Assembly: GCA_027619415.1 (NCBI GenBank)
Contig: JAQCFO010000003.1
Coordinates: 45,596-109,595 of the forward strand
DNA length: 64,000 nt
Source of the DNA: Bacteroidota bacterium
GTDB taxonomy: Bacteria > Bacteroidota > Bacteroidia > Flavobacteriales > Flavobacteriaceae
Reading direction: 5' to 3'
In this document: positions 2,744 to 38,501 of the stretch, piece after piece
How positions within the stretch are numbered: the stretch's first letter is position 1
Layout: the number at the start of each line of letters is the position of its first letter
The notes under the pieces: model-generated
The model's database searches: none
Told to the model about the DNA's origin: nothing
What the model saw: only the letters and a program-made list of their open reading frames with translations
Position numbers and translations under genes: made by a program

Positions 2744-3310
2744 ATGACAATAATAAAACAATTATTATACTTTATCTGCTTTGGAACTTTTTTTCTTTCT
2801 GCACAAAAAACAACTTTAAATATTGAGCGAAGTACACTGAAATGGAAAGGAGAGCAGATTACTTCAAAAACACATTATGGATCTTTAAAGTTTGTTTCTG
2901 GAGAATTAAGTTTTGACAAAGAACTAATATCTTCAGGAAAATTTATTGTTGACATGACTTCATTAACTGTTGAAGATCTTGTCGGAAGCAGTAAAAAAAA
3001 ACTAGAGGGACATTTAAAATCAGATGATTTTTTCTCAGTAAGCAGCCATAATAAAGCCAAACTAACTATTTCCAGCTCAGTTAAAATAAAGGCAAACACA
3101 TACTTAGCGGAAGGAGATCTTACAATAAAAAATATTTTACACCCAGTACAGTTTACAATCCAAAAAGAAAATACTTTTTGGATTGCTAATCTTGTCTTCG
3201 ATAGAAGTAAATATAATGTTCAGTTTCGTTCTGGCAATTTCTTTGAAAATCTAGGAGATAAATTAATTTTAGACTCTATTAATCTAGATACTACCTTGTT
3301 TTTCAATTAG
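2744..3310 (+). CDS. YceI-like (polyisoprenoid-binding) periplasmic protein
   Basis: Signal peptide plus the HLKSDDFFSV motif and overall YceI pattern. Paralog of 36935..37498. Confidence 0.85.
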   Translation: MTIIKQLLYFICFGTFFLSAQKTTLNIERSTLKWKGEQITSKTHYGSLKFVSGELSFDKELISSGKFIVDMTSLTVEDLVGSSKKKLEGHLKSDDFFSVSSHNKAKLTISSSVKIKANTYLAEGDLTIKNILHPVQFTIQKENTFWIANLVFDRSKYNVQFRSGNFFENLGDKLILDSINLDTTLFFN

Positions 3311-11839: not shown

Positions 11840-12016
11840 ATGAAAGATCAAATTCCTAAAATTTTCAGAAAATCAAGCGGGCCAATAGTGGTCCAAGGAA
11901 AAGTTAAAGTAACTGATGAAGAAGGTAACGAAATCAAACACGGACCAAGGTTTAGCTTATGCGGCTGTGCTAAGTCTAAAACTCTGCCATTTTGCGATGG
12001 CGCACATAAATCTTAG
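11840..12016 (+). CDS. CDGSH iron-sulfur domain protein (58 aa, absent from ORF track)
   Basis: ATG 11840 lies 1 nt after the stop of 10990..11838. CGCAKSKTLPFCDGAH fits the consensus C-X-C-X2-(S/T)-X3-P-X-C-D-G-(S/A/T)-H exactly. Confidence 0.75.
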   Translation: MKDQIPKIFRKSSGPIVVQGKVKVTDEEGNEIKHGPRFSLCGCAKSKTLPFCDGAHKS

Positions 12017-36199: not shown

Positions 36200-36445
36200 A
36201 TGAGGAAATTTCTTCTTTTATTGGCAATTATTTTTGTGTTTGGATGTGATGGGTTAGTAAAAGATTGTGGTGAGATTTATGCAAAGTATTCAAATGATGG
36301 AGAATACTTTCTGGCAGTAAACCTTAGTAGTTCAAAATATAGTAAAGATGGTGAGCAAGGTGGAGAAATACTAGCTGACGCTGTAGTTACTAAATCAATA
36401 TACGATTCAGTAAATGTTGGAGATGATTACTGCTTTGAAAACTAA
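36200..36445 (+). CDS. small lipoprotein (81 aa)
   Basis: Lipobox IFVFGC. Paralog relic at 15648..15907. Confidence 0.6.
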   Translation: MRKFLLLLAIIFVFGCDGLVKDCGEIYAKYSNDGEYFLAVNLSSSKYSKDGEQGGEILADAVVTKSIYDSVNVGDDYCFEN

Positions 36446-36508
36446 TATCTTCTACTGTCAATTCAGCTACTTCTAATCCTCGTAAGTAGGTTAATAAGGT
36501 TTATATAA
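36445..36508 (+). repeat. cassette-end repeat copy R1
   Basis: ata tct tct act gtc aat tca gct act tct aat cct cgt aag TAG, plus tail gttaataaggtttatataa. Overlaps the stop of 36200..36445. Confidence 0.9.
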
Positions 36509-36516
36509 TTCTTATA

Positions 36517-36825
36517 TTAAGATTTCTTTATCCAATCTTCAATTGTTTTAAAAACTGAACATAAGCCATCTGCTTTTGTAGTTAAAGAATACTCAACTTT
36601 TGGAGGTATTTGTTGATATTGTTTTCTTGAAATAAGATTATCACCCTCTAAACTTTTTAATTGATCCGTTAAAACCTTTCTAGAAATATTTGGAATAGAT
36701 GATGCAAGTTGACCGAACCTTACAACCCCCCTGTTTATTAAGGTATTAATTATAATCAATTTCCACCTGCCTCCTAGCATTTCTGTAAAGGATACAACCG
36801 GACATATATCATTAGTTACTTTCAT
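36517..36825 (-). CDS. HxlR (DUF24) family transcriptional regulator
   Basis: CPVVSFTEMLGGRWKLIIINTL...PPKVEYSLT, with the conserved N-terminal Cys of redox-sensing members. Confidence 0.9.
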   Translation of the reverse strand: MKVTNDICPVVSFTEMLGGRWKLIIINTLINRGVVRFGQLASSIPNISRKVLTDQLKSLEGDNLISRKQYQQIPPKVEYSLTTKADGLCSVFKTIEDWIKKS

Positions 36826-36863
36826 AATACTGTTTTAGTAACCTGTAAGTTTCTAGAAAATTA

Positions 36864-36890
36864 AAGTTACTTAAAGGTAACAAGTTACTT
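36864..36890. promoter_or_regulatory. candidate HxlR operator: nested GTTAC/GTAAC palindromes in the divergent intergenic region
   Basis: GTTAC(36866)-N6-GTAAC(36877) and GTAAC(36877)-N2-GTTAC(36884). AAGTTACTT is repeated at 36864 and 36882. Extra half-sites at 36838 and 36815. Confidence 0.4.
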
Positions 36891-36934
36891 TATATAACCA
36901 AACGTAGTAATATTGCTTGAACAAAAAAATAAAT

Positions 36935-37498
36935 ATGAAAACAAAAACTTTATTATCACTACTTCTACTTACTCTATCATCACTTTCCTTTGCACAGTCT
37001 GAATTTAATTTAGAGTCAAGCGAAATACAATGGAAAGGCACAAAAATCACAAATCAATCTCATACCGGGACTCTAAAATTTAAAAAAGCAGATATAAAAA
37101 TTAAAAACAAATACGATGTTTCAGGTGAATTTAAAGTTGATATGAGTAGTTTAAAAAATGATGATTTATCAGGTGAATGGAAACAAAAAATTGAGGGTCA
37201 TTTAAAATCAGATGATTTTTTCTCTGTTGAAAAACATCAAGAAGCAACTTTAGTCATAAAAAAAGTAACTTCTAAAAAGAATAATTCATATGAACTAACA
37301 GGGGATTTAACAATTAAAAGCATTACCCATCCTGTTAATTTTGTTTTGTTAGTTTTTAACGACAGAATTGAAAGTAAATTAACTTTTAATAGGTCAAAAT
37401 ATGACATTCGATTTGCTTCAGGCAGCTTTTTTGAAAATTTAGGTGATAACTTGATAAATGATGAAATTAATCTAGAAATAATATTAAATAAAATATAA
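36935..37498 (+). CDS. YceI-like periplasmic protein (second copy)
   Basis: Signal peptide and HLKSDDFFSV. I prefer ATG 36935 to the TTG at 36917 used in the track. Confidence 0.85.
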   Translation: MKTKTLLSLLLLTLSSLSFAQSEFNLESSEIQWKGTKITNQSHTGTLKFKKADIKIKNKYDVSGEFKVDMSSLKNDDLSGEWKQKIEGHLKSDDFFSVEKHQEATLVIKKVTSKKNNSYELTGDLTIKSITHPVNFVLLVFNDRIESKLTFNRSKYDIRFASGSFFENLGDNLINDEINLEIILNKI

Positions 37499-37503
37499 TA
37501 AAT

Positions 37504-37596
37504 ATGATTTACAAAAAACAAGACCGTCCAAAGTGTGGATGCGGAAATACACTAGACCCAAATGGATATTGTGATGGCTCACACTTAAACAATTAA
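37504..37596 (+). CDS. micro-ORF 1: 30-aa CDGSH-like Cys3His knuckle peptide
   Basis: MIYKKQDRPKCGCGNTLDPNGYCDGSHLNN. Starts 5 nt after the YceI stop. Not in the track (under 60 aa). Confidence 0.45.
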   Translation: MIYKKQDRPKCGCGNTLDPNGYCDGSHLNN

Positions 37597-37634
37597 AATA
37601 CCACCCTCCTATGGAGATCTTTTATATTAATGGC

Positions 37635-37684
37635 ATATCCATAGCTGTCAATTCAGCAACTTCCAAACCACGTAAGTAGGCTAA
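37635..37684 (+). repeat. cassette-end repeat copy R2
   Basis: ata tcc ata gct gtc aat tca gca act tcc aaa cca cgt aag TAG gctaa. Preceded by a 7-bp inverted repeat CTATGGA(37609)/TCCATAG(37638). Confidence 0.9.
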
Positions 37685-37760
37685 AATAGAGTGTCAAATT
37701 TTTTTAATCTAGTTTCATTCTAAAGTGTCTTAATATTATATTTACATTAAAATCATACTT

Positions 37761-37847
37761 ATGTCAAATAAACCTAAATGTGGATGTGGAAATACTCAAA
37801 ATCCTGATGGATTTTGTGATGGTTCTCACAACAACCAAGAAGATTAG
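37761..37847 (+). CDS. micro-ORF 2: 28-aa CDGSH-like Cys3His knuckle peptide
   Basis: MSNKPKCGCGNTQNPDGFCDGSHNNQED. Paralog of micro-ORF 1. Confidence 0.45.
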   Translation: MSNKPKCGCGNTQNPDGFCDGSHNNQED

Positions 37848-37862
37848 ATAAAAAGCATTAAA

Positions 37863-37922
37863 GCTGTACTATACAACAACATAGTTTTCTATAAAGTATG
37901 TAAATTAATAAGGTTTAGATAA
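37863..37922 (+). repeat. degenerate cassette-end repeat copy R4
   Basis: The head gctgta.. aligns weakly. The tail at 37896-37922 is 23/27 identical to the R1 tail at 36482-36508. Confidence 0.55.
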
Positions 37923-37985
37923 AGCTATTAATAGTTAATTGCCTAATAAGATTTTTTTTAATTCAGGAATACTTAAATTCGATGG

Positions 37986-38360
37986 GTGAATAAATTAAAT
38001 AGTCTTTTAAAAAACAAATGTCCTAAATGTGGAAATGGTGATTTTTTTATTAATAGAAATCCATACTTAAATATTTTATTTCACAAAGGAAATCATCATA
38101 AAAATTGTTCTTCTTGTAAATTGAAATACGAATTAGAACCAGGCTTTTTTTACGGAGCGATGTATGTTAGTTATGCTTTAGCTATTGGCTTAGGATGTTT
38201 TCTTTTAATTCTATTTATAGGCATTCTAGGTAAAGAAGACGTTTCAATTCTAATTGCCATAATAGGTTTTAGTGTTTTGATTTTTTCGCCAATAAACTAT
38301 TACTTATCAAGATTGCTGTGGATTAATATATTTATTGATAAAAACAACCCTAAACCATAG
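37986..38360 (+). CDS. DUF983 family membrane protein
   Basis: CPKCGNGDFF...CSSCKLKYELEPGFFYGAMY followed by two TM helices. GTG start. Confidence 0.8.
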   Translation: MNKLNSLLKNKCPKCGNGDFFINRNPYLNILFHKGNHHKNCSSCKLKYELEPGFFYGAMYVSYALAIGLGCFLLILFIGILGKEDVSILIAIIGFSVLIFSPINYYLSRLLWINIFIDKNNPKP

Positions 38361-38362
38361 AC

Positions 38363-38413
38363 ATCTCTTCTACAGTCAATTCAGCAACTTCAAACCCTCG
38401 TAAGTAGGTTAAA
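38363..38413 (+). repeat. cassette-end repeat copy R3
   Basis: atc tct tct aca gtc aat tca gca act tca aac cct cgt aag TAG gttaaa. Begins 3 nt after the DUF983 stop. Confidence 0.9.
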
Positions 38414-38501
38414 CTCACGTTTAAATTGAGTGCCCCATAGCTTTTTGTAGCTTGGTAAATGACCCTGTTCTTTTAAAGGCTTCTATTGCAATAAGTTCTC
38501 T

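Follow-up and report, generated by a model that had tools for sequence, protein, structure and literature searches.

The CDGSH proteins mitoNEET, CISD2 and CISD3 are medically important, and we know of no function for their bacterial relatives. Lin et al. 2011 describe the motif of these proteins as PhiCxCxx(S/T)xxxPPhiCDG(S/T/A)H, 17 residues in which C2, C4, S/T7, P11, C13, D14, G15, S16 and H17 are ligands or maintain the loop, and find that the module requires a beta-sandwich with an N-strand and a lid-proline (PMC3174974). An initial annotation of the DNA studied here, which held that known CDGSH proteins need a flanking dimerisation fold, agrees with that work (PMC3174974). According to the structural literature the 17-residue cluster loop cannot stand alone; the subject of the present analysis is a large natural family that is essentially that loop. 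Two of its genes lie in a 64,000-nucleotide stretch of a Flavobacteriaceae genome (hereafter the window; contig JAQCFO010000003.1, positions 45,596 to 109,595), the first directly behind a gene for a YceI lipocalin.

YceI lipocalins bind ubiquinone-8 or octaprenyl compounds, and proteobacterial yceI is co-transcribed with a cytochrome b561 gene, whose product is the proposed re-reducer of the bound quinone in lipid-peroxyl detoxification (PMC9113575). mitoNEET, in turn, is reduced by FMNH2 and oxidised by ubiquinone (PMC9490426). In the literature that we searched, no paper ties CDGSH to YceI or describes CDGSH proteins of the size considered here, which we call micro-CDGSH proteins. Earlier CDGSH surveys would miss the family because they select by strict motif or by Pfam model, and standard annotation misses most members because they fall under the Pfam threshold and often under the length limits of gene callers. 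We class the micro-CDGSH proteins as a new form of the CDGSH module that lacks the sandwich; the family is widespread and uncharacterised.

The micro-ORFs and their family

Comparative analysis shows that the two open reading frames (ORFs) of the window, together with a third copy elsewhere in the assembly (Table 1), are protein-coding genes of a conserved family of 26-31-residue, predicted cytoplasmic micro-proteins. On re-check, both ORFs of the window match exactly the coordinates and lengths given initially. Each has the spacing C-x-C-x9-C-x3-H, that is, the canonical C-x-C-x8-C-x3-H plus one residue, and the two genes share 74% nucleotide identity over 72 nucleotides (repeat D2). Copy 1 belongs to type A, which is linked to YceI and ends in ...GYCDGSHLNN, and copy 2 and the third copy belong to type B, with the pattern xKPKC...DGFCDGSHNNQ[VE]D. 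The type-B orthologues in eight genus relatives are solitary genes, and their neighbourhoods vary.

The initial annotation had pointed to many synonymous changes with the motif kept. Within the 17-codon core, copies 1 and 2 differ synonymously at five codons and non-synonymously at four. Across 81 distinct nucleotide versions of the same core, the mean entropy at codon positions 1, 2 and 3 is 0.27, 0.19 and 1.23 bits, respectively. Such third-position variation indicates purifying selection on the protein, and the earlier argument that the ORFs are selected peptides rather than chance frames now stands on this larger sample. The initial annotation had also proposed to look for conservation of the reading frame in relatives: all 80 genome loci fetched have an intact ORF with a start codon. 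The length is 26-31 amino acids in 79 of the 88 ORFs tabulated (the 80 loci and eight from the first genome search).

When one genome per GTDB species is scanned with a degenerate pattern, micro-CDGSH relatives turn up in 259 species; a scan of IMG/VR finds them in 173 viral contigs. At least one copy is present in 16 of 24 genus relatives, mostly incomplete genomes. Strong matches occur in 9 of the 201 genera of the bacterial family, all with small genomes of 1.5-2.7 Mb, and there were none among 400 genomes sampled across the phylum. By record title the carriers are marine Flavobacteriales (Flavobacteriaceae, Crocinitomicaceae, Cryomorphaceae, Formosa, Polaribacter and Arcticimaribacter); their genomes are for the most part incomplete metagenome-assembled genomes (MAGs) or single-amplified genomes (SAGs). 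An exhaustive hidden Markov model (HMM) search of 1.84 billion representative proteins returns 208 clusters at E<=1e-3 and 44 at E<=1e-10, with lengths mainly of 28-60 amino acids.

Exact-sequence look-ups show several members of the family called on hundreds of contigs, and the exact protein sequence of copy 1 has already been called on five public contigs. Copy 2, which is shorter than the 90-nucleotide limit of common gene callers, is absent from the called-protein collection. The initial description of the genes as unannotated needs qualifying for the family as a whole: copy 2 was never called, some family members carry the IMG label 'CDGSH-type Zn-finger protein', and one is named 'Uncharacterised protein' at NCBI. 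Neither peptide has a match in NCBIfam.

These results bear on whether the ORFs might be chance open frames, or unexpressed, decayed fragments of a full-length CDGSH gene. Such an origin would be in keeping with very short ORFs, one of which lies under the caller limit and outside the protein collection, but frame, start and stop are kept in more than 250 species and in the 173 viral contigs, and third codon positions dominate the variation. The conservation pattern effectively refutes it, and we give it almost no credence. A reading of the region as an RNA element was also rejected, as Rfam yields only chance-level eukaryotic matches over 36400-38500.

Table 1. Coordinates of the micro-CDGSH genes and of associated features (positions refer to the window except for the third copy, which is given by assembly and contig).
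Feature	Position	Strand	Evidence and remarks
Micro-CDGSH copy 1, 30 amino acids, type A, YceI-linked	37504..37596	+	Encodes MIYKKQDRPKCGCGNTLDPNGYCDGSHLNN; ORF confirmed
Micro-CDGSH copy 2, 28 amino acids, type B, solitary	37761..37847	+	Encodes MSNKPKCGCGNTQNPDGFCDGSHNNQED; ORF confirmed
Third micro-CDGSH copy	G000:C61:14002-14085	-	Other contig of the same assembly; 82% identical to copy 2
Canonical 58-amino-acid type-4-like CDGSH protein	11840..12016	+	PF09360, E 2.2e-15; comparison standard
YceI-like lipocalin with signal peptide, cistron upstream of copy 1	36935..37498	+	PF04264, E 2.6e-23
HxlR-family regulator with N-terminal Cys (DICPV), divergent from yceI-micro	36517..36825	-	PF01638, E 5.1e-27
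Weak degenerate hairpin and U-rich tail after copy 1	37605..37625	+	Fold; CCUCC-UAU-GGAG-AUCUUUU
D1 dispersed repeat, further occurrence	36455-36529
D1 dispersed repeat copy 2, left boundary of the copy-2 interval	37645..37719	+
DUF983 membrane/zinc-ribbon protein, inside the interval with copy 2	37986..38360	+	PF06170, E 7.2e-5
D1 dispersed repeat copy 3, right boundary of the copy-2 interval	38373..38447	+
Second YceI gene	2744-3310		No HxlR/MarR-type regulator identified beside it, no micro-ORF after it

Relation to the CDGSH cluster-binding loop

The consensus of 61 distinct sequences is xxKxDRPKCGCGNTQDPNGYCDGSHxNx, with 11 residues invariant throughout (Pro, Cys, Cys, Gly, Asn, Gly, Cys, Asp, Gly, Ser and His). 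The Cys3His order C-x-C ... C-x3-H and the signature C-D-G-(S/A/T)-H are both present, C11, C13, C23, D24, G25, S26 and H27 being invariant. In the numbering of the 17-residue loop, T7, P, D14, G15 and S16 are invariant or nearly so, and the aromatic residue before the third Cys is kept together with T7. Profile-profile comparison was made with eight canonical CDGSH proteins of the same bacterial family, the first row being the 58-residue protein of the window, which is a true zf-CDGSH protein as the initial annotation had proposed. The resulting hhalign match (95%, E 3.6e-8, 22 columns) needs one 1-residue gap only, in agreement with the earlier description of a CDGSH ligand set with one extra residue. 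The best matches among PDB profiles are also CDGSH proteins (3tbm, 7yvz and 3tbn), at the non-significant E values of 0.4-4.7, and the single Foldseek match of a moderate-confidence AlphaFold2 model, again non-significant, is the CDGSH protein 3tbm_A. A genome-wide scan of 41 relatives with PF09360 returned canonical genes only and left the micro-genes undetected, and the canonical gene went undetected in six genus relatives that bear a micro-gene, the MAGs of which are incomplete.

The micro-proteins depart from the strict 17-residue consensus in the x9 spacing and in the Pro, which stands three residues before the third Cys and not one. Taken together, the alignments show that the family is homologous to the CDGSH cluster-binding loop, with the ligands and the G, T, P, aromatic, D, G and S positions kept. 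Around the motif there are just 5-10 residues before it and 1-4 after it. An invariant Pro stands two residues ahead of the first Cys and might take the place of the lid-proline.

The longer loop, D-P-x-G-F/Y, is also found in the first motif of P0121, which is clearly homologous to the type-6 CISD 3tbn (E 1.3e-21) and to human CISD3, and the one-residue insertion is therefore compatible with a genuine CISD fold. Further, there are proteins consisting of two or three bare knuckles in tandem (P0023, P0024, P0030, P0035 and P0044), joined by linkers of 2-15 residues with no intervening strands, which argues that the knuckle would be an autonomous unit and that such units pair. All five are metagenome-derived. 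The 94-residue P0024 carries an N-terminal presequence that resembles an organellar transit peptide, suggesting a eukaryotic algal origin.

We propose that the peptide binds metal through the Cys3His set, most likely as a labile [2Fe-2S] cluster, and that it would act as a back-to-back dimer. Such a dimer is probable because CDGSH modules are always paired and natural two- and three-knuckle tandem proteins exist. The chief rival to this proposal is an adaptor knuckle that binds Zn(II) or mononuclear Fe, the loop having been repurposed, without cluster chemistry, as a small structural finger for docking onto a partner, for instance the YceI precursor or membrane anchor, the FMN reductase, or the HxlR/MarR regulator. 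A length of 26-30 residues is what one expects of a zinc knuckle, there is no protective beta-sandwich, N-strand or lid-proline, the domain was first annotated as a Zn finger and still bears that label in IMG, and phage fusions to Rho_N/SAP-like and, by eye, nuclease-like domains look like adaptor modules. However, a simple Zn site would not need the cluster-cradle residues T7, P, D14, G15 and S16 to be invariant or nearly so, the longer loop also occurs in the bona fide two-domain CISD P0121, and no Pfam zinc-finger or SEC-C family is matched. We consider the adaptor knuckle possible, though doubtful. An identity as a SEC-C domain or zinc ribbon was rejected, since Pfam SEC-C gives no match at E<=1 and the spacing differs.

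YceI linkage and wider gene contexts

Copy 1 is the final cistron of an HxlR-controlled yceI operon. Its start 5 nucleotides past the YceI stop is as first reported, the YceI ORF ending at 37498; at the other end of that gene, whose product has a hydrophobic N-terminus, the ORF list places the start at TTG 36917, and ATG 36935 is likelier. The coupling to YceI suggested initially is supported in other genomes, both by natural fusions (see below) and by synteny, in that the gene immediately ahead on the same strand is YceI in 55 of the 80 loci, with a gap of -4 to 62 nucleotides and a median of 5. At least 17 loci show the divergent HxlR layout. Of the three YceI genes in the genome, just the HxlR-linked one has a micro-ORF behind it. 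After the second, also in the window, comes a GNAT-like gene (assigned by eye), and the third is on contig C7.

Past copy 1 there is only the degenerate hairpin listed in Table 1. Clean intrinsic terminators are found at the orthologous loci L033 and L039 (-11.1 and -12.6 kcal/mol, respectively), and a terminator-like hairpin lies within 70 nucleotides past the micro-ORF in 31 of 78 loci (40%), compared with 1.7% of random control windows. The operon therefore ends after the micro-ORF and not after yceI. A sigma-70 promoter scan gave 11 sites for 11.9 expected, with a model that does not cover Bacteroidota promoters.

Fusions in which a knuckle is followed by a hydrophobic segment and then by YceI fall into two clusters (90% identity) with 130 and 10 members. 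Since P0144 and P0168 lack an internal Met ahead of the hydrophobic segment, the fusion is probably real. Its predicted topology would place the knuckle in the cytoplasm, tethered to a periplasmic YceI that is anchored in the membrane. Neither a hydrophobic segment nor a signal sequence is present in the stand-alone peptides.

Four arrangements of the gene can be distinguished. The first, which is that of copy 1, is a divergent HxlR gene followed by YceI and the micro-ORF. The second has a divergent rhodanese gene and the order MarR, YceI, micro-ORF and TrpE; the third, a divergent HxlR gene and the micro-ORF with DoxX, the stop and start codons overlapping; and the fourth, the order YidC, micro-ORF, NADPH-FMN reductase and pirin, with one locus reading YceI, micro-ORF, FMN reductase and pirin. 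Several loci vary these layouts. At L055:3004-3488, L070:3004-3488 and L093:903-1385, all without YceI, an HxlR-divergent micro-ORF of 30-35 residues with a C-terminal extension precedes the DoxX gene, its stop overlapping the DoxX start in L055 and L070 and lying about 10 nucleotides from it in L093. YceI is also missing from the usual layout at L095:2570-3090, where a micro-ORF with TTG as its sole start (LKANRPKC...) comes directly after MarR and ahead of TrpE. In P0046 (86 residues) the micro-ORF runs through into the N-terminus of an FMN reductase (..CDGSHNKINEKIVAFGASSSKNS..), which may be a fusion or a frameshift or assembly artefact.

It could be imagined that the micro-ORF is a regulatory leader or coupling ORF, whose translation matters for a neighbour (trpE, doxX or the FMN reductase gene) and whose product has no function. 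The ORF does lie directly upstream of the next gene, or overlaps it, in L055 and L070 (DoxX), in L059 (FMN_red) and in the MarR-YceI-micro-TrpE layout. Against this, it most often stands as the last cistron, ahead of a terminator, there are also solitary and phage copies, the amino-acid sequence itself is conserved and homologous to a protein domain, and the YceI fusion is in frame in two clusters, so that a leader function seems to us very unlikely. Two more specific candidates were discarded, namely a trp leader, since the peptide has no Trp and trpE follows the micro-ORF in only 15 of the 80 loci, and a precursor of a ribosomally synthesised and post-translationally modified peptide (RiPP), since no modification enzyme recurs beside the gene.

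Regulators of the HxlR/DUF24 type with an N-terminal Cys and of the MarR type, FMN reductases, DoxX and pirin are typical of quinone/electrophile stress regulons. With three Cys within about 27 residues, and with a thiol-reactive, electrophile-stress type of regulon around it (HxlR with a conserved N-terminal Cys, MarR, FMN reductase, DoxX and rhodanese), the peptide might be thought a cheap, electrophile-induced sacrificial scavenger or metal buffer, similar to a miniature metallothionein and directed at quinones, aldehydes or soft metals. A scavenger would be expected to drift, yet 11 positions, non-Cys ones included, are invariant in the 61 distinct sequences; the exact CDGSH spacing is retained, and the phage copies would be hard to account for. 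We regard a scavenger as improbable.

Copy 2 is a solitary paralogue within a repeat-rich island adjoining tRNA-Met. It had been described as sitting in a repeat-bounded module of its own; D1 repeats do lie on both sides, but the interval also holds a DUF983 gene (Table 1). DUF983 is found downstream of the micro-ORF in L039 and L114 as well. D1, with the core TCAATTCAGCWACTTCNAANCCNCGTAAGTAGG, has 8 copies genome-wide and 0 for the reversed control; outside the window it occurs on contigs C38, C13, C17 and C59 and at C18:40559 of the same assembly (G000), and a copy is also present past the micro-ORF terminator in the SAG locus L033 (~3150-3185). Its variable positions fall at multiples of three, which fits a coding remnant reading ...NSATS(N/K)PRK* on the + strand or YLRGLEVAEL on the - strand. 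Possibly D1 marks the edges of cassettes.

The phage forms of the gene are bare ORFs of 25-28 amino acids and a protein of 108-109 amino acids with an N-terminal knuckle. PHROGs identifies PhoH, GroEL, endolysin, DNA primase and Erf among the neighbours, and the contigs are therefore genuinely viral. One phage peptide (L125) shares 93% identity with copy 1, and the 108-residue protein resembles type B at its N-terminus. PHROGs has no match for the bacterial or phage micro-peptides, and a tblastn search of GenBank/INPHARED phages with three queries gave none, so that the phage copies come from uncultured IMG/VR contigs only. Apparently phage-derived fusions join the knuckle to a Rho_N/SAP-like domain or, as judged by eye, to a nuclease-like domain. 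The 108-109-residue protein, a conserved one seen in L148, L159, L160 and about 30 other contigs (e.g., L148:3007-3333), consists of the knuckle MSDKPKCGCGKSQDPDGFCDGSHKNN... and a C-terminal domain of about 80 residues; the 108-residue form has no Pfam or PHROGs match, and in L159 and L160 its gene adjoins an ORF that is GroES-like by eye. At L175:2604-3815, L183:2588-3604 and L186:1292-2161 a bare micro-ORF is flanked by a small membrane protein on one side and an M15-type endolysin on the other (the endolysin confirmed by PHROGs in L175, by sequence likeness in L183 and L186), in an apparent lysis cassette.

Proposed function and comparison with known systems

From gene context and motif we propose that the micro-peptide is a cytoplasmic minimal Cys3His metal module, likely a dimeric [2Fe-2S] protein, within a YceI-centred quinone/peroxidation-stress unit, and we put the chances of this being correct at about even. 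We picture the peptide on the cytoplasmic side of the inner membrane, where it would serve as a small module for redox chemistry, electron transfer or sensing. Its setting would be a unit for quinone, electrophile and lipid-peroxidation stress made up of an HxlR or MarR regulator and the quinone-binding YceI lipocalin, to which DoxX, NADPH-FMN reductase and pirin may belong in other genomes. Possible parallels are the transfer of electrons from FMNH2 to ubiquinone by mitoNEET and the cytochrome b561 partner of proteobacterial YceI genes. The scavenger, leader-peptide and chance-ORF explanations are much less likely than either the iron-sulfur (Fe-S) or the Zn assignment.

A number of observations weigh against the proposed [2Fe-2S] stress module. 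The micro-proteins have no sequence that could supply the beta-sandwich, N-strand or P motif, and a cluster left exposed by a peptide of 27 residues could prove too labile, which would speak for Zn. The Phi1 position before the first Cys is Lys (or Met/Thr) instead of hydrophobic. The Pfam zf-CDGSH cut-off of 29.5 bits is missed by copy 2 (13.9 bits, E 0.069), and copy 1 gives no match to the model. An AlphaFold2 model of the micro-protein has a predicted local distance difference test (pLDDT) score of 64, with no secondary structure and no strands of >=3 residues. The solitary type-B and phage copies are without a redox-gene context. By its signal peptide YceI would be exported and the peptide would not, so that an electron path between them would need a membrane component, and none was identified. 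That cytochrome b561 (PF01292) gave no match over the cut-off in this genome counts as weak evidence for the proposal, as the genome is just 86% complete.

A bolder version, which we hold tentatively and think rather unlikely to be right in full, is that these are the smallest natural Fe-S proteins, free peptides of 26-30 residues that form sandwich-less Cys3His [2Fe-2S] dimers and serve as the cytoplasmic redox partner of a quinone-binding YceI in the periplasm or membrane, in the role of the proteobacterial cytochrome b561, and that marine phages use the peptide to manipulate host redox or Fe-S status. If a cluster is bound, the family would provide a natural minimal Fe-S protein, with a bearing on Fe-S design and on the ancient origin of the CDGSH fold. 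If, in addition, the cluster sits in a sandwich-less dimer, the beta-sandwich requirement would be overturned and a natural model for primordial Fe-S peptides would be at hand. The coupling and fusion to YceI offer a testable lead on two poorly understood families, the bacterial CISDs and the YceI lipocalins. The gene is carried by streamlined marine Flavobacteriales of high abundance, and its presence in phages suggests a role during infection.

Among the known small metal modules, the SecA C-terminal or SEC-C site (C-x-C-x8-C-H/C) is likewise a C-x-C...C-H metal site of about 20 residues that occurs as a small appended module, but its spacing is different and the D-G-S-H signature is missing from it. 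The type 4 CISDs, represented by Ralstonia RsCISD (3TBM) and by the canonical protein of the window, share with the micro-proteins the Cys3His order C-x-C...C-D-G-S-H, the G/T at motif positions 5-7, the aromatic residue before the third Cys and the occurrence in Bacteroidota. Only type 4 has about 38 N-terminal residues, a five-stranded strand-swapped beta-sandwich, the N-strand and the lid-proline motif, whereas the micro-proteins have 5-10 polar N-terminal residues, one extra loop residue and the Pro shifted by two. The type 6 CISDs (Magnetospirillum MmCISD, 3TBN, and human CISD3/MiNT, 6AVJ) carry two knuckles per chain, back to back, and their homologues P0121, P0120 and P0126 share the one-residue-longer D-P-x-G-F/Y loop with the micro-proteins. 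The bare tandem proteins P0023, P0024, P0035 and P0044 resemble a stripped type 6, which keeps four beta-strands between and before the motifs where the micro-proteins and the bare forms have linkers of 2-15 residues only.

With respect to the gene setting, the closest system is that of BcnA (YceI) and LcoA (cytochrome b561) of Burkholderia, in which yceI is also co-transcribed with the gene of a small redox-cofactor protein, in a stress-induced unit connected with the chemistry of quinones or lipid radicals (PMC9113575). There the partner is a haem b561 membrane protein encoded upstream, whereas here it is a soluble Cys3His peptide of 27-30 residues encoded downstream; the gene linked to YceI is micro-CDGSH in place of cytochrome b561, and a functional equivalence of the two pairs would be speculative. 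mitoNEET/CISD1 (type 1) shares the CDGSH Cys3His motif and differs in its 108 residues, its own transmembrane helix, beta-cap and C-terminal helix, and its x8 loop spacing. As a cytosolic module held at a membrane, mitoNEET resembles the neighbourhood of the micro-protein, with FMN reductase, YceI and DoxX, as well as the fusions of a knuckle, a transmembrane segment and YceI, and from this analogy we infer a functional parallel between the micro-protein and mitoNEET.

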